Assembly: GCA_963785235.1 (NCBI GenBank)
Contig: CAWAUM010000008.1
Coordinates: 1-33,155 of the forward strand
Direction: 5' to 3'
Source of the DNA: an uncultured delta proteobacterium
GTDB lineage: Bacteria; Desulfobacterota; Desulfomonilia; UBA1062
DNA length: 33,155 bases
The first letter of the stretch is position 1. Each line of letters opens with the position of its first letter. Below the pieces are notes generated by a model, which was not told the DNA's origin, did no database searches, and worked only from the letters and a program-made list of their open reading frames with translations. Both the position numbers and the translations under genes were made by a program. Below are positions 1-23,550 of the stretch, in pieces.

Positions 1-42
1 TCATCAACGCACTCCATTTGCCGGTTTTTTCATAGGAGATCT

Positions 43-1395
43 CTAGCGATTTCCTGTTGAGGTGTAAACCCCTGCAAATGGTTGTGGATTCATCAGCCCC
101 TTGAAATATCGCTTGCGGGTAGACAGATTGACCCCGGTGTACAGCTGGCAACCCAGCAGGGTTCGTTTCCATGGGCTCATGCCGAAGAAACGTTTTGTCA
201 TTGCGCCGAAAGAATAGGCTTGTCTGTTCAAGCGATTGAACCCGTTAGTGAGTTCTTCAGCCGTCATGCCTTTGGGTTGAAAAAGGAGTGTATCCGGAGG
301 ATATCCACGGAGCCACCAATCATGTACGAACAGCCTGCCCTCGCTTAAGAGCCGATTGTATAAACGTGTTCCCGGATAAGGGGTGAGAATCCTCAGCTGG
401 ACGACATCCAGACAACCTTTCAAGATAAATTCAAGGGTCTGCTCGAACACATCCTTGTTTTCGTAATCAAAACCAAAAACAAAGGAACCCAGTATACCGA
501 ATCCTTCGTTATGGAACCGATGCATGGCCTCATAGAAATCGATGCTCAGGTTTTTTATTTTTTTCACCTCATTCTGGGTGTTTTTCTGTACCGATTCGAA
601 TCCGATCAAAAGACCCAGGCACCCCGCACGTTTCATCAATCCCAGCAGTTCCAGATCTTCAGCTAAGGAGACCGTGCCTTGCGCCAGCCACCTGCGCCCA
701 AGGGGTATCATTTCAGTAAAAAGCTTTGTGGCAGCATTGCGGTTCAGCCCAAGGGCATCATCGACGAAGAAGAGGTAAGGGGTATCAATAGCCTCTATCT
801 CGGCAATCACCTCTTGAACCGGCCTGACTCGATATTGCTGCCCCAATATCTGGCCAATGCAGCAGAATTCGCAGTCGTACGGACACCCCCTGGATGTCTC
901 AACACCGATGGGGATAGGAATATACCCTTTACCGCTGGTTCCGGGGACGAGATCTCGCCGTGGGTTCGGCAGGTTTTTAAGATCGCTCATTTTACCGGCC
1001 TGATAAAGCCTTTGCATCTGCCCCGAAGCGGCATCCGATACAAGTCGTGGCCAGACACCCTCCGCTTCACCTACGACTACCGCGTCTGCATGCTCCAATG
1101 CTTCGTCAGGCAATACTGAGGGGTGTATTCCTCCCATCACCACCAGCACCTTCTTCCGGCGATAGGTGTCAGCGATATCATAGGCCCTCAGCACAAGCTC
1201 TGTCATGACGGTGATACCCACCAGATCCACATCCTGATCCGTGTCATCGGGGGCAAAGGTTTCATCGACAATGGTAACCGTGTGGCCGGGCGGTGTAAGC
1301 GCTGCCAGAAGAGGAAGGTTTACCCTTAGGAACTTGAAAGGGCTGGATAGACTATCTTCACTTTGATCACTCGGTGCGATAAGTTTTATCTTCAT
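43..1395 (-). CDS. Cobalamin (B12)-binding radical SAM protein (class B methyltransferase-like)
   Basis: CxxxCxxC motif (TSRGCPYDCEFC). N-terminal B12-binding domain (VVMGGIHPS...DAVVVGEAE). Typical FVDD, IGFES, FVFGFD and TPYPGT motifs. Start moved from the ORF track's 1497 to ATG 1395 (MKIKLIAP), which has AGGAG upstream and avoids overlap with the permease. Confidence 0.9.
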   Translation of the reverse strand: MKIKLIAPSDQSEDSLSSPFKFLRVNLPLLAALTPPGHTVTIVDETFAPDDTDQDVDLVGITVMTELVLRAYDIADTYRRKKVLVVMGGIHPSVLPDEALEHADAVVVGEAEGVWPRLVSDAASGQMQRLYQAGKMSDLKNLPNPRRDLVPGTSGKGYIPIPIGVETSRGCPYDCEFCCIGQILGQQYRVRPVQEVIAEIEAIDTPYLFFVDDALGLNRNAATKLFTEMIPLGRRWLAQGTVSLAEDLELLGLMKRAGCLGLLIGFESVQKNTQNEVKKIKNLSIDFYEAMHRFHNEGFGILGSFVFGFDYENKDVFEQTLEFILKGCLDVVQLRILTPYPGTRLYNRLLSEGRLFVHDWWLRGYPPDTLLFQPKGMTAEELTNGFNRLNRQAYSFGAMTKRFFGMSPWKRTLLGCQLYTGVNLSTRKRYFKGLMNPQPFAGVYTSTGNR

Positions 1396-1481
1396 AATTC
1401 TGATGTGCTCCTGTGGCCGGCAGGCCTCGAAACGCCCCAGCCCATATCCGGTGGTGTAGGTTTCATCTTCATTTCGTACTA

Positions 1482-2594
1482 TCAGTCCTCTTCCCATTTC
1501 GTGGCTATTATGCCAAGGATGAAGACAATGGCCGCGAAAACCCCGATGACCGCGGAGTGACGCAGCGCGGCCATGTTGTCTTCAAATACCATGGATGCCC
1601 TGAGCCCTTCGTTCACGTAATACAACGGCAGTGTCTTGGCGAACTTCTGCAGGAACCCGGGCATCAGCTCGATGGGGAAGAAGCTTCCCGAGAGGAACAT
1701 TATGGGGAAACTGATGGCATTTGCCGCAGCGGCTGCGCTCTGCGCCTCCTTGACGAAGCGGGTGAGTATCATCCCGATTCCGACGAACGCGAAGACGTCA
1801 AGTAAAATGAATGTAGGGAGCCAGGCGTCTAAGTGCAACTTGACATTAAACACGGCATAGCTCACCAGCAGCATCGCTATCGTTGATATGACCGCGAGTA
1901 TGAACTGGTAGAGGATGTCCGAGAGTATCCATTCGGTACGGGTGATGGGTGTCGTGGACAGTTTCCTGATGATGCCCTTCTGCCTGAGCTCCGTGTTCAG
2001 GTTCACCGTGCCGAACAGGCTCAGGGTCATCACCGCCATGGCGATTATGCCGGGGATGAAGAACTCAATAAACCGGTATTTCTTGGTGAGTATCGATTTC
2101 TGGACCGACCTGATGACCGGGGACTTCCCGGACATCTGCTGGTTTATACCGGCGAACACCAGGTTCAGGATCTCCATCTTCGTGGATACCGAAGAAGAAC
2201 TGGGGTCGTATATATAGGTGATGGTGACGGATGCGTCTGCGACGCCGAGCACCATCCTGTGCATGAGGGATTTTTCAAATCCTTTGGGAATGACGAGGAC
2301 GAGGTTCACCCCCTTGTCCCTGACGTACTGGGAGGCGTTGATGGCCGGGTCGACCTTGGTTATCTTAAACTTTCCGTTGCTCATGAGGGTCTTGATGGCC
2401 TGTGCGGATGAATCCGTCTGGTCGAGGTCCTGCACGCAAAGGTGGAAGGCCACGTTGTCCTGGCTCATGAAGATCGTGCCGAACACGAGTATCAGGATTA
2501 TCGGGAACGCAAGCGTGAAGAACATGGTGGTCTTCTCGCGGTAGACGCTCATGAGTTTCACAATGAGATTTGCGCCGATGACGCGCGGTTTCAT
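1482..2594 (-). CDS. ABC-2 type exporter permease
   Basis: N-terminal TM (FFTLAFPIILILVFG), large extracytoplasmic loop, five further TMs. ELRQKGIIRKLSTTP and FLSGSFFP...P motifs. TAATG-coupled to the ATPase gene. Confidence 0.9.
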   Translation of the reverse strand: MKPRVIGANLIVKLMSVYREKTTMFFTLAFPIILILVFGTIFMSQDNVAFHLCVQDLDQTDSSAQAIKTLMSNGKFKITKVDPAINASQYVRDKGVNLVLVIPKGFEKSLMHRMVLGVADASVTITYIYDPSSSSVSTKMEILNLVFAGINQQMSGKSPVIRSVQKSILTKKYRFIEFFIPGIIAMAVMTLSLFGTVNLNTELRQKGIIRKLSTTPITRTEWILSDILYQFILAVISTIAMLLVSYAVFNVKLHLDAWLPTFILLDVFAFVGIGMILTRFVKEAQSAAAAANAISFPIMFLSGSFFPIELMPGFLQKFAKTLPLYYVNEGLRASMVFEDNMAALRHSAVIGVFAAIVFILGIIATKWEED

Positions 2595-3544
2595 TACGCC
2601 TCCTTCTCACCGAGGTGACTGTCTTGGAGCGCCTCGCCGGTGAGCTTCAGGAAGACCTCTTCGAGGTTGGGTTTCCGAACGTCCAGGCCGAGGTACAGCG
2701 CCCCGGCATCCTTGATGGCGCTCAGTAACTTTTGTACATCGTCCGTGTGCTCCACCCTGACCTTGATGTCTTTGTGGTTGTCAAGAACAGCATCGAAGCC
2801 CATATTGCGGACGATTTCAAAGACCTTTTCATCCACGGACTGTAACGTGATGACCAGGTAATTTGTGTTGCTTTCGATGAGTTCTTCGGGAGAGCCCCTG
2901 GCGATGATCTTCCCCTTGGAAATGATTGCGACCGTGTCTGCAAGAAGCTCCGCCTCCTCCATATAGTGCGTGGTCAGAAACACCGTCTTGCCCTTCTTCT
3001 TCAGGCCCAGCAGGACTTCCCACACCTCGCGCCTTGCCCTGGGGTCGAGCCCTGTCGTAGGCTCGTCGAGGAACACCACCTCGGGGTCGTTCACGAGCGC
3101 AATCGCGATTCCAAGGCGCTGTTTCAAACCCCCGGAGAGGTTCATGTACTGATCTTTGGTCTTGTCCTTGAGGTTCACAAGCTCTATCAGGCCGTCGATA
3201 TCGGTGTTCATGCAGCAGAAAAGCCTGGAGTAGTACTGCAGGGTCTCTCTTACCGTTATCCTGTCGAACGAGCTGAACCCCTGCGGAAGAACACCGATGC
3301 GGGATACGATGTCGTGCTTCTTCTTTGTGACGTTCATTCCAAGAAGGGTCACCTTTCCGGAAGTGGGCCTGCGGATTGTGTCGATGATCTCGACGCTCGT
3401 GGTCTTGCCGGCACCGTTCGGGCCTAATAGGGCGAACACCTCGCCTTTCCTGACGGTGAACGATATGTCATTGACCGCCAGTAAATCCCCGTAGCGCTTC
3501 TTCAGGTTCTCGACAACGATAGCGTATTCAGTTTCTTTGGTCAT
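2594..3544 (-). CDS. ABC transporter ATP-binding protein (DrrA-like)
   Basis: Walker A GPNGAGKT, signature LSGGLKQR, Walker B VVFLDEPT, H-loop TTH, C-terminal PNLEEVFL. Real start ATG 3544 (MTKETEYA) after GGAG; the longer ORF overlaps the GNAT gene. Confidence 0.93.
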   Translation of the reverse strand: MTKETEYAIVVENLKKRYGDLLAVNDISFTVRKGEVFALLGPNGAGKTTSVEIIDTIRRPTSGKVTLLGMNVTKKKHDIVSRIGVLPQGFSSFDRITVRETLQYYSRLFCCMNTDIDGLIELVNLKDKTKDQYMNLSGGLKQRLGIAIALVNDPEVVFLDEPTTGLDPRARREVWEVLLGLKKKGKTVFLTTHYMEEAELLADTVAIISKGKIIARGSPEELIESNTNYLVITLQSVDEKVFEIVRNMGFDAVLDNHKDIKVRVEHTDDVQKLLSAIKDAGALYLGLDVRKPNLEEVFLKLTGEALQDSHLGEKEA

Positions 3545-4682
3545 GAATCTCCATTTCGCCTCTATGGGAGTCAGCAGGCCAGAACCCGAGGTGGCCGAGA
3601 ACCTTGTTGGCCACCGCCGACTGCGCGACAAGAAGACGGTCAAGCACTCTCTGGCGATGCTTGAATAAAATAAAGCTCGGGATAAAGGCTGCACCAAGGT
3701 GGGCTTTGGTCTTCTCCGTGCCCTGGCCCGCGTAATAGAAAGGGATTTTTTGCTCAACGCAGGTCCGGACATTTTCAAGCCAGGACAAGACATAAAGGTT
3801 GTATTTGCGGCCGAGTTCGTGATCCATGCAGAAATATTTATCCATCATGGCATTTTGTTTTACGACGAGGAGGTTGAAGGCGGCGAGTTTTTCCTGCACG
3901 AAATAAAGTGTATACTCGGTGTCTGGTATTTTCTCACAGATTTTTTCAAAAAATAAACGGTTGTGCGCCCCAAACGCTATGGGGCCTCTTGCAACTGTTT
4001 CCAGATAAAGCTCGTATATCCTGTCCATAAAAGGAGAAATAGTGCGACTTCGAATTACCCGGACTTCGGGGGCAACCCGCATTTTGCGGCGCAGGTCTTT
4101 TCTCGCGGATTTTGAAAAGCCGGCCAGGAATTCCTCCATGCTGTTGAAATTTACCGGCAAACGGGCGCAGGACTGACATTGCACCCGGTTGAACTGTTTG
4201 GATACGTGCTTGGGCAGTTTAGAGTAATGATTAAAGTTGTAAAGAGTCACGATGTCACTATTAAGTTCGGACGCAAGCGTTTGCAAGGTGTTGAAGGCCA
4301 TTTTGCATGCCGCATCGATGGTGTCCTCATCAATGTGAGGATCAATACCGATTTCACTCCATTCCCCTATCAGCAGCCCCACACCGAGAACACGGGGTTG
4401 AAAAAAAGAGGGGATGAGACGGCCTGCCACTTTCAGCGATTTTTTGATCCAACCCCCTACAAAAGAAGACAGATCAAACCGGGTTTCAAACAACGGCAAT
4501 AAGAGAATAGGGGCATCATCTTTAAACACAACGATGCTCCGCAGGTTATAACCGTCAATACCCGATTCCTGCAGCAGGGAAAGAAGGGGGGCGGTGATTG
4601 AAGGCTCCGGGAAAAGCCGTCCAAGTTCTGACGCAGAAACCCCGTCTAACCGCGGTATGCAATTGCAGGTAAGGTTGTTCAT
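3528..4682 (-). CDS. GNAT-fold acyltransferase, FemAB-like / Acetyltransf_6 family
   Basis: 384 aa. Motifs FNSMEEFLAGFSKSARKDLRRKMR, IYELYLETV, LFFEK and YAGQGTEKTKAHLGA match double-GNAT FemAB-like proteins. Confidence 0.7.
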   Translation of the reverse strand: MNNLTCNCIPRLDGVSASELGRLFPEPSITAPLLSLLQESGIDGYNLRSIVVFKDDAPILLLPLFETRFDLSSFVGGWIKKSLKVAGRLIPSFFQPRVLGVGLLIGEWSEIGIDPHIDEDTIDAACKMAFNTLQTLASELNSDIVTLYNFNHYSKLPKHVSKQFNRVQCQSCARLPVNFNSMEEFLAGFSKSARKDLRRKMRVAPEVRVIRSRTISPFMDRIYELYLETVARGPIAFGAHNRLFFEKICEKIPDTEYTLYFVQEKLAAFNLLVVKQNAMMDKYFCMDHELGRKYNLYVLSWLENVRTCVEQKIPFYYAGQGTEKTKAHLGAAFIPSFILFKHRQRVLDRLLVAQSAVANKVLGHLGFWPADSHRGEMEIHDQRN

Positions 4683-4761
4683 GTCCTATCGTTCTCCGAT
4701 TCAAAAGTGCGGTGGAAGGCCACCTCTTTCTCTTGAGGAAGCCAAAGTATCAGCGGAATAG

Positions 4762-5607
4762 TCACCGCTTCAAAGCCAGGTACCACTTTGTGGCATCGCT
4801 CCCGATTCCTAAAAGGGCAAGGTGGCGCAGATCCGCTTCCAGAACTTCGGGGGTGCTGTACTCCAGTATGCGGTATTGCGGATCTGTCCAAACACGCCGC
4901 GGCCGACACCAGAACCTCGTTTCCTGCGGCAAGGTGAGGCGAATGCGGTGGATCAGGTTGATGCCTGCCAGCGCCGCTGTTTCTGTCACCATATCGGTGC
5001 AGTTGTTGCTCCTCACGCCGAACTGGTCGTACTTCCGCTGCATCACGTATTCATGGATCAATTGATGCCGTCGCCGGGTAATGGGCATTCGCCAGACGAA
5101 CGAGGGGGGGCGATTGGGCTTGCCGATCTGGAATTGGCCATCAGACCTCGTCTGCCACAAATAAGCGATAGGGTTGGGATCCCCATCTTGAATGTTCTGA
5201 AACACGCCCTCATGGTAACGCGGTTTCGCTTCCCCGAAGTCTCCGGTGTGGCCGAATTCCAGACGATCCTGGGGACTTTCCAGGATGAGCCAACTATGCG
5301 CCCACGGACGCTGCCAAATTGAGAAGACAAGCGACGCCGCATTGCTGTAGTCCCAATCGGCAGCTTCGTTCAGGATATAGAGGTAATATCCCTCATCCCC
5401 CACGGGCGTTCTGGTGGCGGGATCCAGGTCGGCATCGGGGGCAAAACGGCACATGATCGAAATGGGTTGGGCACTCCAGCCATCGGGTTGCATCTGAGCG
5501 TGCAGCCTGGGTGTTTGGTGGGCGCATCTGGCTGTAACCCTCGCCAGTAATTTTATCACCACGAGGAGATGAGCGCGATATACTTGCTTGGATGCATTGC
5601 TACTCAT
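4762..5607 (-). CDS. Hypothetical protein, probable circularly permuted papain-like (NlpC/P60 superfamily) acyltransferase or amidase
   Basis: 281-aa ORF overlapping the PPTase stop. His motif WAHSWLILE precedes Cys motif YDQFGVRSNNCTDMV. The function is inferred. Confidence 0.6.
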   Translation of the reverse strand: MSSNASKQVYRAHLLVVIKLLARVTARCAHQTPRLHAQMQPDGWSAQPISIMCRFAPDADLDPATRTPVGDEGYYLYILNEAADWDYSNAASLVFSIWQRPWAHSWLILESPQDRLEFGHTGDFGEAKPRYHEGVFQNIQDGDPNPIAYLWQTRSDGQFQIGKPNRPPSFVWRMPITRRRHQLIHEYVMQRKYDQFGVRSNNCTDMVTETAALAGINLIHRIRLTLPQETRFWCRPRRVWTDPQYRILEYSTPEVLEADLRHLALLGIGSDATKWYLALKR

Positions 5608-6433
5608 TCATTCTTTCCCATTGTATCTTTGCCCCACGACCAATGTCTGGTTGATTGAGATAAGCATAACCGTATTCATTAACGTTGCGATCCAGATGGG
5701 CAATAGAAAACCATCCTTGCCTCTGGGGAAGCGAATATACCCACATGCAACGGCCGGCACCTACGTGCAAATGTTCCAAAACTTTTTCTGATATGCGCAC
5801 CGGAAAGGCATACACCCCTTCTCCGGCTACTGATGGATAAACATGGACCTGCTTTGGTTCTACCATATGAAATGCACACCCAATGGCTTTGACAACCGCT
5901 TCTTTAACGGACCAGAGCAGTGCTGATGCCTGTTCCACATCTCCGAGCGTCAAACTCAGTGCATGTCGAAACTCCTGTTCATGGAAGACCCGGTGAAAGG
6001 GGTATTCTCCTTTGAATTCGTAAGGCCCTGCCATATCGATACCGATCTCAGATCCGTCTCCACACAGGGCGGCCCAGACCTTTCCCCCACCCTCACTGAA
6101 GGAGATGGCCGGTCCCTGATGTTCTCCCAATATAAGATATGGCTTGCCCAACCGGTTACAGACCACCCGAATTGGCAAGTCTTGTCTGTTTGATGTGTGA
6201 TAAAATTTCCAAGGAGGATTTTTCATCGCCATGAGGTGATCCCACAGGATAGTTACCAGGAAGTGCTTATCGACCTCACCGATTGTTCTGCCTTCTTTTG
6301 AAGTTTCACCGGCACAGGGCAATGACCCATAGAGGGCGGAGCCCTTTTCATTCAGGAAACTGAGGGTATGAACGGTTATTCTCCGGCAATCCATTGCCAT
6401 AACCACGTCCATCTTTCCCATGCTGTTGTTCAA
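5600..6433 (-). CDS. 4'-phosphopantetheinyl transferase (Sfp-type)
   Basis: LGKPYL, IGID and WSVKEAVVKAIG (WxxKEAxxK) motifs. TTGA overlap with the PKS stop. Alternative starts at ATG 6421 or 6412. Confidence 0.85.
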   Translation of the reverse strand: MNNSMGKMDVVMAMDCRRITVHTLSFLNEKGSALYGSLPCAGETSKEGRTIGEVDKHFLVTILWDHLMAMKNPPWKFYHTSNRQDLPIRVVCNRLGKPYLILGEHQGPAISFSEGGGKVWAALCGDGSEIGIDMAGPYEFKGEYPFHRVFHEQEFRHALSLTLGDVEQASALLWSVKEAVVKAIGCAFHMVEPKQVHVYPSVAGEGVYAFPVRISEKVLEHLHVGAGRCMWVYSLPQRQGWFSIAHLDRNVNEYGYAYLNQPDIGRGAKIQWERMNE

Positions 6434-14142: not shown

Positions 14143-14167
14143 TGTACGAGCGAAACTAATACTACCT

Positions 14168-14191
14168 GCATATTATTATATAATAATATGC
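14168..14191. promoter_or_regulatory. Perfect 24-bp palindrome, candidate operator
   Basis: GCATATTATTAT|ATAATAATATGC is its own reverse complement. It lies in the divergent PKS/activase intergenic region and covers the -10 box. Confidence 0.55.
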
Positions 14192-14204
14192 CCCCCATTG
14201 TCTA
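14175..14204 (-). promoter_or_regulatory. Putative sigma70 promoter of the PKS operon
   Basis: Minus strand: TAGACA (14204-14199), 18-nt spacer, TATAAT (14180-14175), about 30-60 nt upstream of the PKS start. Confidence 0.55.
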
Positions 14205-14400
14205 GAGAGAGGACCGAAGATATTGAGGAATAGGTGTCTGAGCATGGTCGGTACCTCTACCCCTTGAATTCTCATATCTGATAGCTATATTCATTGAGAT
14301 TGTTAAAGTTATGTTAAAATATACAGCATATAAATGATGCAAATTGGGATTCTTCCGAACTTTCCTGGTGGTTTTAGCAGATTGAAAAGGTTTCTATGCT

Positions 14401-17400
14401 ATGAAGAGAAACACGCTTGGAATAGATGTCGGGTCAGTAGCAGTGAGTATTGTAGAGATCACGCCCGAGTATAAAATCGTTAAAAGCGCATACTGTCTTC
14501 ATCAAGGCAAGATTGCAGAAACCATAGGTGAAGCACTTGTTGGTTTTGCCTTATCACGTATCTCGCAAGTGAGCGCTACTTCTTCGACACCTTATTTCGT
14601 GAAGGCAGACAAAAGGTACGATAACCAGGTGTGCCTCATTTCCGCACTCCGTCATGTTCACAGCAATGCAGGCGTCCTCTTGAATATCGGCGCAGAAAGA
14701 TTCTCCCTGCTTTTGTTCCATGAGAACGGCTCGTACAGGAAATGTAAAACCAATTCCTCGTGCGCAGCAGGGACCGGGAGTTTCCTTGATCAGCAGGCGT
14801 CCCGGCTCAATCTTGAAGGGATCGAGGAACTGGGGGTTATAGCCTCTACGAATACGGGTGTAATCCCCAAGATCGCCTCGCGCTGTGCGGTCTTTGCCAA
14901 GACAGACCTTATCCATGCGCAGCAGGAAGGATACAGCCTTACTGAGATCTGCGACGCTGTGTGCTGCGGACTGGCAAAGAATGTTGTGGACACACTCTTC
15001 ACCGGTGAAGAAGTGAATGAACCCATTGTGGTCTGTGGCGGGGTGTCGAAGAACCCTGCTGTGCTCCGGCATATCCGGGGACTCATAGGCAATGATCTTA
15101 TCGTTGATGAAATGTCGCATCTATACGGTGCGTTCGGTGCTGCTATCCGGCTTGCCGGCGATGGGGCCGGGGGGATGATGGATTTGAAATCCCCCAGGGA
15201 CCTGATCCAGGACAAAAAGCCACAGAGAAAATATGCCTGTGCCCCTTTAGAACTGAAGCTGTCCGATTACCCGGATTTCACGGGTATCAGACATTACCCA
15301 TATGCGGTAAGGACAAGAAAAACCCCTGAAAAAGTCGATGTGGATATATATAAAGAACTGCCAAGAGGCGCTATAGACAGGGTTTATCTTGGCATAGACA
15401 TCGGCTCCACGAGCACCAAAGCCGTGATGGTTGATGAGCAAAAGAATGTCCTGGCCGGGTTTTACACCTGGACTGCCGGCAGGCCGGTAGATTCACTATG
15501 CGCGGTCCTTGAGGCCATGGATGATCATATTTTCCGCGAGGGGGTTACCGTAGAGGTTATTGGTGCAGGGACCACAGGCTCGGGCAGGAAGCTCATCGGC
15601 AAGATCATCAACGCGGACATGGTCATTGACGAGATAACGGCTCATGCGCGCTCTGCCTGCGAGCTTACGCCCGAGGTAGACACCATTATCGAGATCGGCG
15701 GGCAGGATTCCAAGTTCACTACGCTCAGGAACAAGGCAGTCACTTTCTGCGCCATGAACACCATATGCGCCGCCGGCACGGGCAGCTTCATCGAAGAACA
15801 GGGTAAAAAAATGGGCTGCACGCTTGATGAATATCAGACAAGGGCAGAGGGGAGAGGGTCTCCCATGGCATCGAACAGATGCACGGTCTTCATGGAGCGG
15901 GACATGAATTATTACCTGAGCGAGGGATACAGCGCCGATGAGATGCTGGCATCCGCCCTCCACTCTGTGAGCGAAAATTATCTCACAAAGGTGGCAATAG
16001 AGGCAAGCATTGGTGATACCATATGTTTTCAGGGTGCCACGGCTAAGAACAGGGCCCTTGTGGCGGCCTTTGAGCAGAGGCTCGGCAAGCCCATCCACGT
16101 GTCTCGATACTGCCATCTCACCGGAGCCTTGGGTGTTGCGCTCCTGCTCGCCGATGAAGGGATACATTCAGAGAATTTCCGGGGTATCAAGCTCTATACG
16201 AAAGAGATCCCCGTGCATTCCGAGGTCTGTTCGCTGTGCACCAACCACTGCAAGCTGACCGTAGCGGAGCTTGATGGTGAGGAGCTGGCCTATGGTTTCC
16301 TCTGCGGGAGGGACTATCATGTCAAAGGCCATATTGATAACAATACCTCCGGATTCGATCTCATCAGGGCACGCTCAAAGGCATTTTCCTTCCCCAAGAA
16401 GAAGGTTCATGAAGAACGACTCACCATGGGGATACCTGATGCACTCCACCTTGGTGACGACTTGCAATTCTGGCAATATTTCTTTGATGCGCTATCCATA
16501 AAGACGATAACAAGCAAGGGTTACGCTGATGCCATTAAAGAGGGGAAAAAGATCTCAGGGGCCGAGTTTTGCGCACCGCTCACGGCACTGCACGGGCATG
16601 TGGGCTACCTCCTCGACAAGGCCGATTATGTGTTCCTGCCGTTCTACCTGGAGGACAAGCAGAAGACAAAGGACGTAAGGAGGCAGTACTGCTACTACAC
16701 CCAGTATGCACCCTCATTGGTGGCTGATGTTTTTACTCATGACAAGGAAAGGATCCTGATGCCCCTGGTCAAGTATCTCTACAACGGATCCCATGCAAAG
16801 GTGCAGCTCTATCGCATGATGAAGGCCATCAGCGTCAGAAGGATAAGCCTCCGCGATGTTTCAACGGCCTACAATAAGGCCCTTGAATTCAAGGAGCGCT
16901 CGATTGAAGACCTCTCCAACCAATACCGAAGGGAAATTGCAGAGGCCAAGGGCATATCAGTCGTCCTCCTTGGAAGGCCCTATACCGTTCTTTCTCCTGT
17001 CATGAACAACGGGATCATCGATCTTTTCGCATCAAAGGGGATCAAGGTCTTTTCTCATGACATGCTCCCATTAAATGGTCACAAACCCGATGAGAATCTT
17101 AAGGAACTCCTCCACGAGCTTCCCTGGAAGCATGCTGCAAACATCCTGCAGGCAGCAGATCTTTCTGCCCAGACCGATGGGCTCTATCCTGTCCTGGTGA
17201 CCTCCTTTCAGTGCTCGCCGGATTCCTTTGTGGCAGAGTATTTCAAGAAACTCCTCGATTCATATGCGAAGCCGTATCTCATCTTACAGCTCGATGAGCA
17301 TGATTCGAATGTTGGGTACGAAACCAGGATCGAGGCAGCAATCAGGTCATTCAGGAACCACTTCGTGGGGTTCCGGACAAATACACCCCGGGCACCATCA

Positions 17401-18642
17401 AAGAGTATCGTTCCGGTGAAGTCGTTTGCAGACAGGGTCCTGTATTTCCCGAACTGGGACCATTTGAGCTGCAGTCTGGTCGTTGCTTCACTCAAGCGCG
17501 AAGGTATCGATGCACGGCTTACCGAGGGAAACGAGGCGAGCCTTCTGAGCGGCCTTAAATACAACACCGGCCAGTGTATCCCTATAAATATCATGGCCCA
17601 GGAATTCATCGATTCCATGCTGAAGGACGATTTGGACCCCTCGCGGTGCGCCCTGTGGATGTGCAGTGGTACCATCGCATGCAATCTGAAGATGATCCCG
17701 CACCATATCAAAAACATCCTCAACAGCCATGGCAAGGGTATGGAACGTGCGGATGTGTACCTTGGAGAGATCTCCATGATGGATATCTCGTTGCGTGCCA
17801 CGGTGAACACATACCTTGCCTTCATGTTCGGGGGCCTGCTCAGAAGGGTCGGGTGCAAGATACGGCCTTATGAAGACGTGAAAGGGATGACCGATAAGGC
17901 CATGGAAGAGGGTTTACGTATACTCGATGGGGCATTCGAGGGATTACGGTCCAAGGAGGATGCCCTCAAGGAGGTAACATCTCTCTTTGAGAAGATTTCT
18001 CGGAGGGTAGAGAAAAGGCCTCAGGTAGCCATTTTCGGTGATGGCTATGTCAGGGACAATGATTTTGTCAACCAGGGTCTCATCCGTTTCATCGAAGAAC
18101 AGGGCGGCGAGGTCATAACCACCTCTGACATTTCTTTCTTAAAGATGATCGCAAGGCCGTATTTCAGGAAGTGGATTATTGAAGGTGAGTATCTCTTTGC
18201 CATCTTATCGAAGGCATATTGGATCGCCTTGGAGCTTATCGAAAGGAGATACTACCGGTACTTCGAGCTTCTTCTCAACGAGCCCGCCCGTGAATACCGG
18301 GACCCAACTCAGAAGATCCTTTCCGGATACAACCTCTTGCCGGAACATACCGGAGAATCGATGGAAAACATTATAAAAAGCCACTACATCAAGAAGTATC
18401 ACCCCGATGTCTCCCTTTTCATCCATACAAGTCCTGCCTTTTGCTGTCCGGCCCTGGTTACCGATGCCCTGGCAAATAAGATCGAGGAGACGACCGGGGT
18501 TCCTCTGGTGAATATCACCTATGACGGAACGTGCAGTGCAAAAAACAGCGCAGTGATTCCTTATCTCGCATTTTCAAACAAAGATTCGAAGCAGCATGTA
18601 CATGTCATGGACCGGATCGAACAAATTTTAGGGAAATCTTGA
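14401..18642 (+). CDS. Fused double CoA-activase + dehydratase/reductase protein (PlsA/PlsR-fusion or glycerol ester reductase Ger-like)
   Basis: 1413 aa. Two BadF/BadG/BcrA/BcrD ASKHA ATPase domains (GIDVGS..CAAGTGSF..RCAVF and GIDIGSTSTK..EIGGQDSK..CAAGTGSF..RCTVF). CSLCTNHC..CGR linker. DUF2229/HgdD-like C-terminal half (EFCAP, LLGRPY, FQCSPD, DEH..GYETRIEA, QCIP, FCCP). Confidence 0.88.
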   Translation: MKRNTLGIDVGSVAVSIVEITPEYKIVKSAYCLHQGKIAETIGEALVGFALSRISQVSATSSTPYFVKADKRYDNQVCLISALRHVHSNAGVLLNIGAERFSLLLFHENGSYRKCKTNSSCAAGTGSFLDQQASRLNLEGIEELGVIASTNTGVIPKIASRCAVFAKTDLIHAQQEGYSLTEICDAVCCGLAKNVVDTLFTGEEVNEPIVVCGGVSKNPAVLRHIRGLIGNDLIVDEMSHLYGAFGAAIRLAGDGAGGMMDLKSPRDLIQDKKPQRKYACAPLELKLSDYPDFTGIRHYPYAVRTRKTPEKVDVDIYKELPRGAIDRVYLGIDIGSTSTKAVMVDEQKNVLAGFYTWTAGRPVDSLCAVLEAMDDHIFREGVTVEVIGAGTTGSGRKLIGKIINADMVIDEITAHARSACELTPEVDTIIEIGGQDSKFTTLRNKAVTFCAMNTICAAGTGSFIEEQGKKMGCTLDEYQTRAEGRGSPMASNRCTVFMERDMNYYLSEGYSADEMLASALHSVSENYLTKVAIEASIGDTICFQGATAKNRALVAAFEQRLGKPIHVSRYCHLTGALGVALLLADEGIHSENFRGIKLYTKEIPVHSEVCSLCTNHCKLTVAELDGEELAYGFLCGRDYHVKGHIDNNTSGFDLIRARSKAFSFPKKKVHEERLTMGIPDALHLGDDLQFWQYFFDALSIKTITSKGYADAIKEGKKISGAEFCAPLTALHGHVGYLLDKADYVFLPFYLEDKQKTKDVRRQYCYYTQYAPSLVADVFTHDKERILMPLVKYLYNGSHAKVQLYRMMKAISVRRISLRDVSTAYNKALEFKERSIEDLSNQYRREIAEAKGISVVLLGRPYTVLSPVMNNGIIDLFASKGIKVFSHDMLPLNGHKPDENLKELLHELPWKHAANILQAADLSAQTDGLYPVLVTSFQCSPDSFVAEYFKKLLDSYAKPYLILQLDEHDSNVGYETRIEAAIRSFRNHFVGFRTNTPRAPSKSIVPVKSFADRVLYFPNWDHLSCSLVVASLKREGIDARLTEGNEASLLSGLKYNTGQCIPINIMAQEFIDSMLKDDLDPSRCALWMCSGTIACNLKMIPHHIKNILNSHGKGMERADVYLGEISMMDISLRATVNTYLAFMFGGLLRRVGCKIRPYEDVKGMTDKAMEEGLRILDGAFEGLRSKEDALKEVTSLFEKISRRVEKRPQVAIFGDGYVRDNDFVNQGLIRFIEEQGGEVITTSDISFLKMIARPYFRKWIIEGEYLFAILSKAYWIALELIERRYYRYFELLLNEPAREYRDPTQKILSGYNLLPEHTGESMENIIKSHYIKKYHPDVSLFIHTSPAFCCPALVTDALANKIEETTGVPLVNITYDGTCSAKNSAVIPYLAFSNKDSKQHVHVMDRIEQILGKS

Positions 18643-18646
18643 ATGG

Positions 18647-19474
18647 CTATACGCTCCCCTTCTGTACCTTGCAGATACCCCGACGCATAATCAGCTCCAC
18701 GATGAAGGGGAAGTGCCGTTTCATGAAATAGATGAATTTTCCGTCCACACCGGGGATAATGATGAAGGTCTTGCGTTTGATCCCCTCGATAAGCACCCTG
18801 GCAACTTCATCCGGCTGCATGATCTTGGCTGCGGCCGAAAGCGCCCTGGTCACCTCAGGTTTACAGATGTTTTCTGTGGCGTATCCCGGTGTGTCGGTAT
18901 CGGGAGGGCAGAGCACGGAAACCGTGATATCGTAGCGCCGCAGTTCCTGCCTGAGCACCTCCGAGAGGCCGATGATGCCGAATTTCGAGGCACAATAGTC
19001 CGTATAGCCGAAGACCCCCATGAAGCCGCACAGGGAGGATACATTGACGATTGCGCCGCCCCTGGGCTTCATGTGCGGGATGAGGACCGTGGTGGTATTC
19101 CAGCTGCCGTAGAGGTTGGTCTTCATGGTCTCGTCGAACTGCGCGAAGGTGACTTCCTCGAAACAGCGTGGCAGGGCCCGCCCGGCATTATTAATGAGAA
19201 GGTCCGGGATGCCGAAGTTTTGAACAGCCTCGGTCATGACAGTGTTCACTTTTGTATTGTCCGCCACGTCGAGTTGCCGGAAGGCGAAACGCTGCGCCTG
19301 TAAGATGCGGCGGCTCTCGATTTCTTCGATGGCTGCTTCAAGTTTTTCTTTTGTCCGGGCGAAGATGATGACGTTGGCCCCCGAGGCTGCCAGGAGCCTG
19401 GCAGTAGAAAGGCCAATACCGGTAGATCCGCCGGTAATATAGACGTTCTTATCAAGAAAATCCTTCATTTTCAT
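18647..19474 (-). CDS. SDR oxidoreductase, 3-dehydrosphinganine (3-ketodihydrosphingosine) reductase-like
   Basis: TGGSTGIG, NNAG, S..YCASK catalytic motif. GVFGYTDY and CPPDTDTPGYATENICKP match the KDSR-like subfamily. ATGA-coupled to the PLP enzyme gene. Confidence 0.88.
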   Translation of the reverse strand: MKMKDFLDKNVYITGGSTGIGLSTARLLAASGANVIIFARTKEKLEAAIEEIESRRILQAQRFAFRQLDVADNTKVNTVMTEAVQNFGIPDLLINNAGRALPRCFEEVTFAQFDETMKTNLYGSWNTTTVLIPHMKPRGGAIVNVSSLCGFMGVFGYTDYCASKFGIIGLSEVLRQELRRYDITVSVLCPPDTDTPGYATENICKPEVTRALSAAAKIMQPDEVARVLIEGIKRKTFIIIPGVDGKFIYFMKRHFPFIVELIMRRGICKVQKGSV

Positions 19475-20334
19475 TTCCCCATAGACACGTTCATCTTACT
19501 CCCCAAAGACCTGCAGCAATCAAGAAGATAATCGATCTGTTCCCTGGTGTGGGAGGCCATTACGGTAAATCTGATCCTGGACTGGTTTCTTGTTACCGCA
19601 GGCCATCTGACGCATGGCCCGTATATCCCGTAGTCAACCAGGCGCCGGGAGAATTCCACCCCTTTATCGTCTTTGCCGATCAGTATGGGGATGATCTGGG
19701 TCTCGCTGGAAAAGGTATTGAATCCCAGATCGTTAAACCCTTCCTTCAAATGGTTGGTATTCTCCCATAACTTCGTCCTTAAGGTCGGGTCGCTTTCCAT
19801 GAGATCGATTGCGGCAATAATGGTTGCAGCAGTGGCCGGGGGCATGGCTGCCGAGAACATATACGACCGGGAAGCTACCCTGAGATAATGTATCAGGTCA
19901 TGTGATCCTACGACATACCCGCCCACGGCACCGACGGATTTGCTGAAAGTCCCCATTATGATGTCAATGTCCTTCAAGGGCTTCAGGTGGAAATGCTCAA
20001 TAGTACCGTGTCCATGGGCCCCGAGAATGCCTGTGGCATGGGCTTCATCCACCATGGTGACCGCATCATATTTTTTCGCCAGGTATGCTATCTGATCGAG
20101 GGGGGCGATATCACCATCCATGCTGAATACACCGTCGGTTATGATAAGCTTGCGCCTGCGGCGATGGCGGTTCAGTCTTGCTTCCAGAACATTCATATCC
20201 TTGTGAGGATACACCACGGTCCTTGCCCCGCTCAATCTGCACCCGTCAATAATGCTTGCATGATTCAACTCGTAGGAAAAAACCACGAACTCTACAGTTT
20301 GCGATCTTAAGATCAGCAACTTATTATATATCAT
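19471..20334 (-). CDS. PLP-dependent alpha-oxoamine synthase (serine palmitoyltransferase / 8-amino-7-oxononanoate synthase family), N-terminally truncated, possible pseudogene
   Basis: LNHASIIDG, DGVFSMDGD, DEAH, GTFSKSVGAVGG (PLP Lys at 19939-41), SRIRF. Only 287 aa versus roughly 400 for the family. The N-terminal NYLG and GSR motifs are missing. Confidence 0.8.
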   Translation of the reverse strand: MIYNKLLILRSQTVEFVVFSYELNHASIIDGCRLSGARTVVYPHKDMNVLEARLNRHRRRRKLIITDGVFSMDGDIAPLDQIAYLAKKYDAVTMVDEAHATGILGAHGHGTIEHFHLKPLKDIDIIMGTFSKSVGAVGGYVVGSHDLIHYLRVASRSYMFSAAMPPATAATIIAAIDLMESDPTLRTKLWENTNHLKEGFNDLGFNTFSSETQIIPILIGKDDKGVEFSRRLVDYGIYGPCVRWPAVTRNQSRIRFTVMASHTREQIDYLLDCCRSLGSKMNVSMGK

Positions 20335-20352
20335 GGAGATTTATTTTTTTTG

Positions 20353-20901
20353 TCACAACTTGCTTTTGAAAAAGGTCTGTTTTAATTCAGTGATGTCCCG
20401 CGTGTGAATAGCAATTCTGGTAACCTTACCCAATTCATTATAGATTGGAAACCAGCTGCTGTGGATCAATCTTCCTCGATCCTCATCTTCAAAGCGTATT
20501 GGGTGCCCCAAGCTATTGACCTGTTCAAGGTAAATCTTTCTTCTATCCGCTACCTCATTCGGCAGGTAATCGAAAATACAGGTCCCCAACAATTCGTTAA
20601 GGCTTCTGCCCAGATTGTCTGAAGCCACTTTGTTCACATGAATTATTGTTCCTGTCATGTCTATCAAAACCATGAAATCTGTACATGCGTTCAGTAATGC
20701 CTGTGCTGTTGCTTCAGTCTCCTGAAGTAACTTTTCTTTCTTGATGCGTTCTGTGATTTCCCTGGCAACAGTGATTACTTCAACCACTCTGCCATCCCGT
20801 TTTAAGGGACTGCTGCTGAACTCGCCGAACTTCCGTTTTCCATCTTTGGTTATAAACTCATAGATGGAAGAATTGATTGTCTGCCCTGAGAGTAGATGCA
20901 T
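20353..20901 (-). CDS. PAS-domain protein, C-terminal part of a frameshifted multi-PAS gene
   Basis: Starts mid-PAS (YEFITKDG..REITER), followed by one full PAS ending RDITELK. The frame is open back to the C5 run at 20933-20937. Confidence 0.7.
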   Translation of the reverse strand: MHLLSGQTINSSIYEFITKDGKRKFGEFSSSPLKRDGRVVEVITVAREITERIKKEKLLQETEATAQALLNACTDFMVLIDMTGTIIHVNKVASDNLGRSLNELLGTCIFDYLPNEVADRRKIYLEQVNSLGHPIRFEDEDRGRLIHSSWFPIYNELGKVTRIAIHTRDITELKQTFFKSKL

Positions 20902-22787: not shown

Positions 22788-22898
22788 CTTCGCTCCCAGA
22801 TCATTGACCAAGTTAATATATGAATAATATAGTTAAAAATTAAAATGACTAGGCACGTGATCTATGTTTCAGCTTATAATATTATACAGAGCAAGTTG

Positions 22899-23285
22899 TT
22901 ACTCAACTTCAAGCACCCTTGAGATGGCCTCGGACATATCCTTTAAGTTTATAGGCTTCCTGAGAAATAGTTTAACACCCATTTCTTTTGCATTTTCCTC
23001 CGTGATATTTTGACCGTATCCGGAATAGAGAATAACCGGCATGCTAAAACGTATCTTCATAATCTTACTTGCCAGTTTATCGCCTGTCATATGGGGCATT
23101 GTCATATCGGTTATGACCAGATCGAACTGATTGGGATCTGTCCTGAACAAATCAAGAGCATTAATACTGCTGGATAACGCTGTAACCTTATAACCCAACT
23201 GCTCAAGCATTCTTGTTGTAACTTCGAGCACAGCTGTTTCATCATCAACTAGGAGAATTTTGCGAGGTTCTTTTGCTTGTTTCAT
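22899..23285 (-). CDS. Single-domain response regulator (receiver only)
   Basis: ILLVDDE, phospho-Asp in DLVITDMTMP, ILYSG, KP. Confidence 0.9.
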   Translation of the reverse strand: MKQAKEPRKILLVDDETAVLEVTTRMLEQLGYKVTALSSSINALDLFRTDPNQFDLVITDMTMPHMTGDKLASKIMKIRFSMPVILYSGYGQNITEENAKEMGVKLFLRKPINLKDMSEAISRVLEVE

Positions 23286-23375
23286 ATTATATCCAGATCA
23301 ATAGCCTTGTTCTGCTTGGATAATTTAATAAATTAATACATAAATGTATCCCAAAAAACATAAATATCGGTAAAA

Positions 23376-23413
23376 AAAATGACATAGGAAACTAATAAAT
23401 CCTATGCCATTTT
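23376..23413 (-). terminator. Hairpin followed by T-run; probable intrinsic terminator of the PAS-LuxR gene (or a dyad operator)
   Basis: Minus strand: AAAATGGCATAGGA-N10-TCCTATGTCATTTT running into a longer T tract. 13/14 match, and the mismatch is a G-U pair. Confidence 0.45.
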
Positions 23414-23550
23414 AACAACTCTGGCTTTCCGAGTATAAACATATTGTATTGAAGATAGGATTTCCTCCTTATGCGCCTTGAGATATCGCTTGTCGATAAT
23501 GTAAGATTGCCTGGATATTAGTGGTCAATTATAACTAATAAATTAAGTTC

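Follow-up and report, generated by a model that had tools for sequence, protein, structure and literature searches.

A trimmed but intact copy of a widespread, uncharacterized PKS cassette proposed to supply the acyl chain of an amide lipid

We found that positions 1–14142 of the window (the whole stretch of DNA analyzed, which is an entire 33,155-bp contig) are a trimmed but intact copy of an uncharacterized cassette family that is widespread. The best explanation of the data as a whole, which we hold with modest confidence, is a horizontally spread "PKS amide-lipid cassette" that provides the acyl chain for an amide lipid. Most likely it supplies an acyl chain reserved for an N-acylated, ceramide-like membrane lipid, which would be exported and undergo tailoring outside the cytoplasm. 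The core is an intact seven-gene operon on the (−) strand (43–14142) encoding a synthase, a PPTase, the protein U281, Fem, an ABC-2 pair, and a B12 radical SAM enzyme:

1–4 (−): cut-off next operon gene (ATG at 4–2 plus one base), by analogy a PAP2_3 head-group-type membrane enzyme, ended by the contig edge
43–1395 (−): class B (B12-binding) radical SAM enzyme (rSAM) with DUF4070 (Pfam B12-binding, Radical_SAM, DUF4070; ORF to 1497)
1482–2594 (−): ABC-2 type exporter permease (Pfam ABC2_membrane_3, 2e-35)
2594–3547 (−): ABC exporter ATPase, DrrA/NodI type (Pfam ABC_tran; NCBIfam drrA, 262 bits; ORF open to 3793)
3528–4682 (−): Fem/GNAT-fold transferase (Fem), candidate acyl-/aminoacyl-transferase (Pfam FemAB_like 9e-7, ATE_C 3e-5, Acetyltransf_6 3e-4)
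4762–5607 (−): U281, 281 aa, permuted papain-fold (NlpC/P60-LRAT-PPPDE type) Cys/His enzyme (AF2 fold matches) with an N-terminal hydrophobic leader
5600–6433 (−): dedicated 4′-phosphopantetheinyl transferase (PPTase; Pfam ACPS, 8e-9)
6430–14142 (−): iterative FAS-like type I PKS, 2570 aa (N-terminal region, ER of FabK/NMO type, KS, AT, one ACP, KR, DH; Pfam, NCBIfam)
14175–14204 (−): promoter-like site upstream of the synthase gene (TAGACA-18-TATAAT, 11/12 matches, a consensus match only)

The nine ORFs on which the initial annotation of this DNA was built were all found where it had placed them, and the seven-gene operon is coherent to a degree far exceeding chance. Each of its seven ORFs, the 2570-codon synthase among them, remains open; the seven are 81–93% identical to their counterparts in the congener G003 over nearly the full length, and the catalytic stretches are kept in U281, the rSAM, and the synthase. 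The ATG at 4–2 had been read as a sign of further genes to the left, which is borne out by G003, where a 293-aa PAP2_3/PAP2_C gene starts 38 nt past the rSAM stop, a spacing identical to that in the window. A PAP2 gene (83% identical) is also present on contig C13 of the source genome (G000) at 60562–61431. Neither a YghO-type first gene nor an EptA-like gene is present in the window operon, and its gene order is rearranged relative to the usual cassette.

Further analysis of the operon proteins revealed that the synthase retains the KS Cys/His/His stretches and the AT GHSLGE and MAFHS stretches and is 58–76% identical across phyla, while a Pfam/NCBIfam domain search found no thioesterase in its 2570 aa. 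The enzyme does not fit a Pfa-type PUFA/secondary lipid synthase: it is a single polypeptide with one PP-binding domain, not a multi-subunit assembly with tandem ACPs, and scores 431 bits on the PfaA model (cut-off 1010). The PPTase gene follows the synthase gene in 33 loci. Profile comparison by hhalign did not relate Fem to the YghO family (probability 0.1); the AF2 model of Fem is poor (pLDDT 57), and no solved structural relative of it was found. The start of the ATPase was placed at ~3547 because the orthologue ORFs are 316–317 aa long, and that of the rSAM at 1395 as the likely one, since orthologue homology begins at Met35. The rSAM carries a CxxxCxxC motif at residue 205 and shares with HpnP/HpnR/HpnJ, BchE, and TIGR04072 a B12-binding domain, a radical SAM core, DUF4070, and a lipid operon context. 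It differs from them in score, with 68 to 100 bits on the NCBIfam models against cut-offs of 360 to 650 (HpnJ 100/578, HpnR 68/650, TIGR04072 80/360) and 84 bits for BchE, far under the cut-off. These scores place it outside every curated equivalog, so that the label "methylase" is a guess.

U281 of the window matched no Pfam or NCBIfam model (PF05903, PF25218, LRAT, and NLPC_P60 were all unmatched), and among 78 relatives PF05903 matched seven (best E 0.026) and the TseH model two, all below threshold. Its earlier description as a papain-like protein is borne out by the fold: the AF2 model (pLDDT 94.6) matched TseH (6v98; Z 11.0, rmsd 4.0 over 141 residues), YiiX (2if6; Z 8.1), DeSI-1/PPPDE (2wp7; Z 6.8), MARTX RID (5xn7; Z 6.0), PLAAT4 (7zot; Z 4.5), and CLN5 (6r99; Z 4.4). 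As in permuted papain-fold acyl-transferases and hydrolases, the candidate catalytic His (H104) precedes the Cys (C203); both are invariant across 78 sequences, together with W106, G119, P146, and G157, and H120 is kept in at least 90%. However, U281 differs from these fold relatives in its 9–15% sequence identity, its own N-terminal leader, and its extra strands, and it forms a separate family of ~233 clusters at 50% identity. Relatives numbered 591, the best 120 of which are all at least 74% identical, and only 2 of 14 congeners have U281. Of 67 orthologues, 36, among them those of G003 and the second cassette-bearing congener, G001, carry a lipobox-like motif; in the window copy it is degenerate (reading ..TARC), which makes the export of U281 in the source organism uncertain.

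The cassette was surveyed at 69 loci outside the genus, most of them incomplete in extent, which contained genes for the PKS (56 loci), a YghO-family protein (55), Fem (33 loci, and 28 of the 36 where at least 8 kb is visible on both sides), an alpha-oxoamine synthase (AOS; 20), PAP2 (16), and a CerR-like, epimerase-family reductase (16). All five extended loci read G375a-U281-PKS-PPT-Fem-ABC-ABC-rSAM, with an EptA-like gene before the closing rSAM gene in three of them. The same genes in the same order in five of five loci uphold the single coupled operon of TE-less synthase, PPTase, papain-fold protein, GNAT-fold protein, ABC pair, and B12-rSAM that had been proposed for the window. Specifically, the cassette proteins of these loci are 49–88% identical to those of the window (permease, 77–84%; rSAM, 75–84%, aligned from residue 35). 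The hosts belong to the Thermodesulfobacteriota, Geobacterales, Nitrospirota, Acidobacteriota, Verrucomicrobiota, and Lentisphaerota and further include Methylomirabilota/Rokubacteria, Binatia, and Planctomycetota MAGs; across the Nitrospirota, Acidobacteriota, Verrucomicrobiota, Methylomirabilota, Geobacterales, and other groups, the gene set shows 65–88% identity. An Spt-like AOS (58–87% identical) was found somewhere in all five extended cassette genomes, adjacent to the cassette in two and unlinked in three. That an AOS lies near only 20 of the 69 loci counts against a ceramide reading. AOS, CerR-like, and PAP2 genes adjoin the cassette in varied arrangements in several lineages and also lie beside U281 where the PKS is absent (L068, L070, L071, and L074), and six loci contain FAAL-ACP-AOS fusions.

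The usual first gene of the cassette encodes a YghO/bCerS-family N-acyltransferase. All three G375 types (the source-genome gene at 61543–62667 of C13, outside the window, and both cassette types) align full-length with E. coli BL21 YghO (31–35% identity, E 1e-61 to 1e-78), and YghO (ECD_02850) is in turn homologous to CC_1154, the N-acyltransferase for ceramide in Caulobacter (PMC9386255). On the NCBIfam serine palmitoyltransferase model, the Geobacter-type AOS reaches 565 bits against a cut-off of 640, and it shares 42% identity with E. coli Spt. The epimerase-family gene next to the AOS shows 27% identity to "epi" of E. coli BL21, and the best homologue in the source genome (29% identical) is unlinked, on contig C7. 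In its YghO homologues, Spt-like AOS, and epimerase-family reductases, the cassette resembles the ceramide pathway of Spt/bCerS/CerR with AasR-AcpR, as far as the available text of PMC9386255, PMC11087976, and PMC11324152 describes it, and the FAAL-ACP-AOS fusions are the equivalent of AasR-AcpR-Spt. In contrast to that pathway, the acyl donor would be the ACP of a private megasynthase rather than an AcpR loaded by AasR; the cassette adds U281, Fem, the rSAM, the EptA-like protein, and a dedicated exporter; and the YghO-family/PAP2 pair of this genus, present in 10 of 14 congeners, mostly occurs without any Spt-like gene (a G003-type AOS in only one).

The initial annotation had joined nine genes into one system by including three features to the right of the operon:

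14401–18642 (+): predicted PlsA/Ger-like ester-to-ether lipid enzyme, 1413 aa (BcrAD_BadFG ×2, 6.7e-57; DUF2229, 3e-45; weak HGD-D, 0.008)
18647–19474 (−): classical SDR, 275 aa, intact, partner of the AOS remnant (Pfam adh_short, 2e-51)
19471–20334 (−): AOS remnant, 5′-truncated, 287 aa (AOS profile positions 119–385 only; homology ends at 20286)

In that model, which we consider very improbable, the PKS chain would be offloaded by an acyltransferase or the oxoamine synthase, reduced by the SDR, converted by the PlsA/Ger-like enzyme into an ether or plasmalogen, methylated, and exported. The genes do lie side by side in the window and in G003, and in part also in G001, and the PKS and PlsA-like genes point away from each other, their promoter-like sites lying back to back at a distance of 258 bp. 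Two BcrAD_BadFG activase domains, DUF2229, and a weak HGD-D piece give the 1413-aa protein the architecture of PlsA/PlsR and Ger (available text of PMC13159169); PlsA and Ger are not separated by sequence, and the ester-to-ether role is a prediction. However, the PlsA-like gene lies beside the cassette at none of the 69 loci outside the genus, an absence that the annotation itself had named as telling against its grouping. It is present in 12 of the 14 congeners, five without U281 among them; orthologues at 52–96% identity occur in nine congeners, only two of which have U281, and no PKS, AOS, or SDR gene adjoins the orthologue in four contexts from cassette-free congeners. In five other cassette genomes, the nearest PlsA-like homologue (~32%) is far off or on another contig, and the source genome has a second, more distant PlsA/Ger-like paralogue on contig C3. 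The PlsA/Ger-like gene is a resident neighbor, not a cassette member, and is not co-inherited with the cassette; the proposed ether-lipid link to the PKS operon is thus not supported.

The AOS/SDR pair also speaks against a nine-gene system, as it is differently damaged among relatives and is decaying. The window AOS is a 5′-truncated remnant, since matching starts at position 119 of 385. Relative to the AOS copy on C13, a 681-bp deletion removes about 130–132 codons plus upstream DNA, and the junction is no artifact, since it is bridged by a metagenome contig of independent origin (X4 record 29, 19769–20686). In the C13 copy, ~117 codons are out of frame owing to three 1-nt deletions, so that the source genome has no intact serine-palmitoyltransferase-type AOS; because both of its copies are damaged, a ceramide product is not general to the cassette. 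The SDR has a second copy on C13 (95% identical), is shrunk to a 58-aa fragment in G003, and is interrupted by a 405-nt deletion in an independent metagenome contig, while the whole pair is missing in G001 (98% complete), which has no AOS-family gene at E ≤ 1e-20. A KDSR-like SDR partner was seen in this genus only, with weak generic SDR matches in 2 of the 69 other loci. The intact AOS of G003 reaches 410 bits on the SPT model, where the cut-off is 640, and 429 bits on BioF, where it is 426; in a small tree this AOS groups with Spt and the cluster AOSs (83/80 support). Of the earlier claims, inclusion of the PlsA-like gene and of the AOS/SDR pair was not confirmed, leaving the seven-gene operon; the sphingolipid-type link stands for the cassette family, through its YghO, AOS, CerR-like, and PAP2 genes, and not for the truncated AOS of the window. 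The remnant abuts a PAS gene, and the PAS sensor adjoining the window cassette is frame-shifted.

The closest characterized system is PfSgaABC of Pseudomonas fluorescens MYb115 (type I PKS SgaA, SPT-type SgaB, and KDSR-like SDR SgaC), which yields sphinganines and PG-sphingolipids (PMC12134224, 2025). It sets a precedent for a PKS feeding SPT and for the PKS, AOS, and SDR of the nine-gene model, and to that extent the earlier statement that the combination matches no characterized cluster is outdated. As in PfSgaABC, a TE-less iterative PKS adjoins an oxoamine synthase and a classical SDR (compared by gene content, not by SgaA sequence), and a PKS-bound acyl chain would enter sphingolipid-type chemistry. 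Unlike in PfSgaABC, the AOS is an inconstant partner across the loci and is truncated in the window, where the PKS and SDR are intact and do not adjoin a functional SPT-type AOS; moreover, the YghO/bCerS acyltransferase, U281, Fem, ABC-2 pair, and B12-rSAM are constant here, and none is described for Sga in the available text. The published genus list of 6,101 SgaAB homologues includes anaerobe labels (Desulfovibrio 17, Trichlorobacter 2, Syntrophaceae 1, and Lentisphaeria 1), so that overlap with the cassette is possible.

Two other readings concern the seven-gene operon itself. The product might be a secreted or surface N-acyl amino acid or lipopeptide-like metabolite and not a membrane sphingolipid, which we regard as rather unlikely. 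Here Fem and/or the YghO-type enzyme would acylate a small amine, the DrrAB-like ABC-2 pair would export it, U281 would mature or hydrolyze it outside, and the proximity of Spt-like genes would reflect shared lipid islands only. The exporter is of the drug/nodulation-factor type and would serve equally well for a metabolite that is secreted or for a membrane lipid, the patchy, HGT-like distribution is typical of secondary metabolism, and the cassette's presence in G001 without any AOS, its lack of linkage to the AOS in three of five extended genomes, and the rarity of the G003-type AOS beside the commoner YghO-family/PAP2 pair all favor this reading. Nevertheless, the constant partner is a full-length homologue of a ceramide N-acyltransferase family, AOS, CerR-like, and PAP2 genes recur beside the cassette and beside U281 without the PKS, and every extended genome has an Spt-like AOS. 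It is quite improbable, in turn, that in the source genome a transferred cassette survives only as a decaying relic without function. The missing YghO-type and EptA-like genes, rearranged order, truncated flanking AOS, degenerate U281 lipobox, and frame-shifted PAS sensor point that way; against it stand the seven open reading frames, their near-full-length identity to G003, the retained catalytic stretches, and the resident YghO-family and PAP2 genes of the genome.

For the amide-lipid cassette that we favor, the data show which genes are present, how conserved and how distributed they are, and which folds and families they belong to; from this we infer the chemistry of each step and what the product is. 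The PPTase would prime the one ACP of the synthase. Taken to be iterative, fully reducing, and malonyl-specific, this FAS-like enzyme would build a dedicated saturated acyl chain; with no thioesterase, the chain would stay ACP-bound until released by acyl transfer onto an amine, in the usual cassette by the YghO/bCerS-family N-acyltransferase. The class B rSAM may modify the alkyl chain, most plausibly by C-methylation, and the ABC-2 pair would export the lipid. U281, which has the fold of the PLAAT/LRAT, RID, and CLN5 acyl-transferases, may then tailor the exported lipid at the inner membrane's outer face; PAP2 and, in other genomes, also an EptA-like transferase would add head groups. In the many genomes with Spt-like, CerR-like, and PAP2 neighbors, the product is most likely of the ceramide type and distinguished by a special chain, either the N-acyl chain or the long-chain base. 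The cassette of this genus no longer has a YghO-type gene of its own and is flanked by a resident PlsA/Ger-like gene on one side and a resident PAP2/YghO-family pair on the other, and because the flanking AOS/SDR pair is decaying, the acceptor amine here is probably not a self-made sphingoid base.

Domain matches in Pfam and NCBIfam bore out the nine genes listed in the initial annotation of the window, i.e., contig C8 (33,155 bp), one of 13 contigs in the 3.9-Mb assembly G000. Seven of the genes below, from the synthase to the radical SAM protein, form a minus-strand operon, hereafter the cassette.

Genes of the window and their matches in Pfam and NCBIfam
Within 43-14142, minus strand: synthase (PKS), 2570 aa, with FabK/NMO-type ER, KS, AT, one ACP, KR and DH; no thioesterase
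Within 43-14142, minus strand: PPTase
4762-5607, minus strand: U281, a Cys/His protein of 281 aa without any family match
3528-4682, minus strand: Fem, a Fem/GNAT-fold transferase (FemAB_like/ATE_C/Acetyltransf_6)
Within 43-14142, minus strand: ABC ATPase, DrrA/NodI-type
Within 43-14142, minus strand: ABC-2 permease
Within 43-14142, minus strand: B12-binding radical SAM protein (B12-rSAM) with DUF4070
14401-18642, plus strand, divergent from the synthase: PlsA-like protein, 1413 aa, with two BcrAD_BadFG domains, DUF2229 and a weak HGD-D piece
18647-19474 and 19471-20334, minus strand, convergent with the PlsA-like gene: classical SDR and alpha-oxoamine synthase (AOS) ORF

The synthase keeps the KS Cys/His/His residues and the AT motifs GHSLGE and MAFHS, the latter of the xAFH form, which we take to be malonyl-specific; the B12-rSAM keeps CxxxCxxC. 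Pfa-type secondary lipid clusters, as outlined in the available text of PMC3098273, do not fit a single-gene synthase with a single ACP. An ATG at 4-2, previously read as a sign of more genes to the left, is accounted for by a PAP2_3 gene located after the B12-rSAM in this genus. No Rfam family matched the window at gathering score. At 27822-29186 (+), a 454-aa ORF encodes five PASTA domains, which derive from 210-bp tandem repeats that share 87-92% identity.

U281 has 591 relatives in a collection clustered at 90% (233 clusters match at 50% clustering); the best 120 of these are all at least 74% identical, and none of the 120 carries a Pfam domain. Using a 12-sequence U281 alignment as the query and one genome per species, we retrieved 78 loci from MAGs labelled Thermodesulfobacteriota, Nitrospirota/Thermodesulfovibrionales, Acidobacteriota, Verrucomicrobiota, Lentisphaerota, Methylomirabilota/Rokubacteria, Binatia, Planctomycetota and others, and U281 is 70-85% identical across phyla. 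Among the relatives of the window's genome, U281 was found in 2 out of 14 congeners (G001 and G003, the latter labelled a Desulfomonilia MAG; locus L079); the 46 further genomes from the family and class lack it. This high conservation, yet patchy distribution, points to a transferable trait with a defined lipid product.

ORF clustering across loci and tblastn revealed the usual gene order G375a-U281-PKS-PPT-Fem-ABC, where G375 denotes N-acyltransferase genes of the YghO/bCerS family. In all five loci that were followed further downstream (the extended loci), an ABC-2 permease and a B12-rSAM follow, with an EptA-like sulfatase-fold protein between them in three, and the encoded proteins are 49-88% identical to those of the window. 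Outside the window's genus, 69 loci have a close U281, and genes were counted over these; seven loci with 28-34% relatives were excluded.

Occurrence of genes among the 69 loci; many loci are incomplete, so the counts of Fem and of genes farther downstream are lower bounds
PKS: 56
G375: 55
Fem: at least 33
AOS-family ORF: 20 (the cluster holds 21 loci, but includes a wrongly grouped AMP-ligase ORF in L047)
PAP2: 16
Epimerase-family reductase: 16
PlsA-like: 0

The window's genus carries a rearranged, trimmed form of the cassette: U281 stands after the PPTase, G375a is missing, the EptA-like gene occurs in G003 only, and PAP2_3 follows the B12-rSAM. Elsewhere, two loci hold tandem U281 paralogues (L034 2888-4709, labelled Nitrospiraceae, and L070 8997-10849, an unclassified MAG). 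In several loci (L069 3217-5570, L073 162-2562, L015, L039, L043 and L045), the stretch just upstream of the cassette carries a cardiolipin-synthase-like PLD gene and an unnamed 311-aa gene, joined in some of them by an AsmA-family gene; all three are possible further partners in lipid trafficking.

The G375 genes offer a link between the cassette and the bacterial ceramide enzymes. All three types (a, b and the genus's own GNAT375) can be aligned end to end with YghO of E. coli BL21(DE3) (31-35% identity, E 1e-61 to 1e-78), and a Protein Atlas search with the YghO-type protein matched only generic "acyl-CoA N-acyltransferase" clusters. According to the text available from PMC9386255, YghO (ECD_02850) is a homologue of the Caulobacter N-acyltransferase CC_1154, which is required for dihydroceramide. 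In BL21, the neighbours of yghO are a fatty acyl-AMP ligase, an epimerase-family gene, an ACP and spt. Upstream of the cassette, Geobacterales-type loci carry an epimerase-family reductase, an AOS (565 bits on the NCBIfam serine palmitoyltransferase model, cut-off 640; 42% to E. coli Spt), a second YghO-type gene and a PAP2_3/PAP2_C protein that weakly matches phosphoinositol dihydroceramide synthase. FAAL-ACP-AOS fusions of 900-1160 aa, the counterpart of AasR-AcpR-Spt, occur in six loci, and four PKS-less loci (L068, L070, L071 and L074) combine AOS, YghO-type gene, reductase and U281. A Spt-like AOS (58-87% identity) is encoded in all five extended genomes, adjacent to the cassette in two and elsewhere in three. 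These associations tie the cassette, albeit loosely, to the bacterial ceramide enzyme set, described as Spt, bCerS and CerR in the portions available of PMC11087976, PMC11324152 and PMC11334938. In BL21, paralogues annotated lptG and lptF directly follow spt (L108 8921-11067), which fits the title of a 2026 preprint on LPS-transport homologues moving sphingolipids. Genome G062 has two Spt-like AOS matches with identical scores (C1:1250939-1252189 and C2:2928021-2929271), which could reflect a duplication or redundant contigs.

The PlsA-like protein shares the domain architecture that the accessible part of PMC13159169 describes for PlsA/Ger. The initial annotation had placed this ether-lipid gene in one system with the PKS, a claim that finds no support outside the genus, where the two are adjacent in none of the 69 loci, including none of the 36 that extend 8 kb or more on each side. 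The best PlsA-like homologue of the five extended genomes is ~32% identical and lies at a distance of 1.1 Mb or 73 kb, or else on a different contig; in G064 and G065 it is present as fragments only. Within the genus, PlsA-like orthologues (52-96% identity) occur in 9 out of 14 congeners, or 12 with distant paralogues counted, and U281 is confined to G001 and G003, although its absence from G011 (PlsA-like copy 96% identical; 530 contigs, 88% complete) is weak evidence. In the cassette-free congeners G002, G004, G009 and G012, the contexts of 15-20 kb read around the PlsA-like orthologue contain no PKS, AOS or SDR. The PlsA-like gene is thus a neighbour and not a member of the cassette. A second PlsA/Ger-like paralogue lies on contig C3 of G000 (28017-32076; 25-42% identical in pieces, with open frames of 662 and 826 aa) and may be frame-shifted or truly split, like PlsA/PlsR.

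The gene called "SPT-like" does belong to the AOS family, but it is not intact: the window's ORF (287 aa) is a remnant whose profile match begins only at position 119 of 385, and the stop codon of a PAS-domain ORF lies directly upstream. Contig C13 of the same assembly carries a second copy of the SDR and the 3′ part of the AOS (97% identical), relative to which the window lacks 681 bp, i.e., the first ~132 AOS codons and the region upstream. An assembly chimera at 20286 is rejected as a cause, since a 917-nt metagenome contig from another study (X4, record 29) spans 19769-20686 with 17 differences and one gap and bridges the junction; among the sequencing runs, none contained more than 43% of the sampled words, and interpretation is confined to the covered parts of the stretch. 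The C13 AOS is full length and broken by three single-base deletions, which may be genuine or may stem from polishing of a repeated region. G003 keeps an intact AOS (448-aa ORF), but its SDR has shrunk to a 58-aa fragment; G001 lacks both, and there a CorA gene follows the PlsA-like gene; and one X4 contig jumps 405 nt within the SDR. The lesions differ among the genomes examined, so the AOS/SDR pair beside the PlsA-like gene has been damaged differently in each. The intact G003 orthologue scores narrowly above the BioF cut-off, which would fit a role in biotin synthesis. We provisionally set this reading aside because the best BioB match in G000 stays below cut-off (92.6 bits vs. 225) and because the neighbours are SDR, PAP2 and YghO-type genes.

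The right part of the window (18639-32010) is collinear, in inverted orientation, with C13 60559-54689 (88-97% identity, several indels). The C13 row reads AOS (interrupted), SDR (95% identical to that of the window), PAP2 and a convergent YghO-type gene (C13 54689-62667; L089 4689-12667), and G003 holds on a single contig the AOS, the SDR fragment, the PlsA-like gene (opposite strand), the cassette, PAP2 and the convergent YghO-type gene. Since the SDR joins PAP2 directly on C13, the G003 layout indicates that the cassette and the PlsA-like gene occupy that SDR/PAP2 junction. C8 and C13 could be two loci of one genome (a segmental duplication) or strain variants binned together. The window's PAS-domain sensor (20353-22811, minus strand) lies in two overlapping ORFs of 182 and 653 aa; contigs of three of the four public runs compared have one more G following position 20932, which makes the split a single-nucleotide deletion peculiar to this assembly or strain. 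Over the PAS/response regulator/LuxR block (20300-27000), GC falls from ~0.51 to 0.39-0.45, and ~5.8 kb of the block (20475-26255) is missing from the collinear C13 copy, which suggests an insertion.

The genus has a resident YghO/PAP2 pair. YghO-type genes occur in 10 out of 14 congeners and in all 16 sister-family genomes, and the pair is convergent and adjacent in four of five other congener or family contexts (G002, G004, G006 and G007; not G024). The G003-type AOS is present in G000 and G003 only, and no AOS-family gene was found at E ≤ 1e-20 in the cassette-bearing G001 (98% complete) or in G006 (99% complete). The pair and the cassette therefore occur without a sphingoid-base synthase, which argues that the amine acceptor in this genus is another amine or is taken up from outside.

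U281 represents a new Cys/His enzyme family without a curated model. Across 78 relatives, H104, W106, G119, P146, G157 and C203 are invariant and H120 is at least 90% conserved. The AF2 model is confident (pLDDT 94.6); Foldseek returned no PDB hit at E ≤ 0.001, and an exhaustive aligner returned matches that were all permuted papain-fold proteins, i.e., TseH (Z 11.0), YiiX (8.1), a B. cereus cysteine peptidase (7.0) and DeSI-1 (6.8), followed by MARTX RID (6.0), Aichivirus 2A (5.2), PLAAT4 (4.5) and CLN5 (4.4). Several of these proteins move acyl chains via a Cys thioester. The N-terminus of U281 is a hydrophobic leader, and in 36 out of 67 orthologues a lipobox-like motif lies ahead of the conserved domain, both congeners included (LLAGVAAGC or LLTGVAAGC). 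From these sequence features, the family is likely exported; export of the window's copy, which reads LLARVTARC, is uncertain. An exported enzyme could not unload a cytoplasmic ACP, so that role would fall to the YghO-type enzyme or Fem. The AF2 model of Fem, built from 21 orthologues, is poor (pLDDT 57.4), a Fem profile search of PDB sequences returned chance rows only (E 0.77), and hhalign gave a probability of 0.1 against the YghO family.

Taken together, the PKS-lipid cassette is conserved and transferable and has ties to ceramide-type enzymes; the window carries it in reduced form, next to a decaying AOS/SDR pair and an ether-lipid gene that is unrelated to it. The initial annotation is partly confirmed in what it observed and partly supported in its reading: the seven-gene operon and its lipid-type character stand, the ether-lipid gene and the AOS/SDR pair are not supported as parts of the same system, and the SPT-like gene is a remnant. 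The nearest described system is PfSgaABC: per the available text of PMC12134224, a pseudomonad produces sphingolipids with an iterative PKS, an SPT-type AOS and a KDSR-like SDR. The survey in that text counts 6,101 homologous pairs, mostly from Proteobacteria, Burkholderia among them, and a few bear the labels of anaerobes. The literature searched, whose coverage excludes most subscription journals, yielded no account of the larger cassette. As a tentative proposal, possible rather than probable, the product may be a new class of bacterial amide lipid: a PKS-derived acyl chain, modified by the B12-rSAM (e.g., methyl-branched or very long), would be N-linked by the YghO-type enzyme to a sphingoid base or other amine, exported by the ABC-2 pair, and re-acylated or trimmed by U281 outside the cytoplasm. 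In the AOS-less genus of the window, the amine would be one other than a sphingoid base. If this is true, U281 would found a new family of envelope lipid transacylases.

What is known of bacterial sphingolipid and other amide-lipid synthesis in anaerobes comes mainly from gene surveys. Beyond the ceramide genes already described, the cassette brings a megasynthase of its own, a tailoring enzyme of the radical SAM type, an exporter and the new Cys/His family of U281. In the window, the ether-lipid and sphingolipid-starter genes should not be annotated in one pathway with the PKS. As of the available text of PMC11087976, no flippase or exporter for bacterial sphingolipids had been identified, and the cassette could provide a candidate. 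Since it is common in anaerobes of many phyla from peat, wetland, groundwater and sediment, it could be a source of unassigned environmental lipids, and knowing its product could account for such lipids in anoxic soils and sediments.
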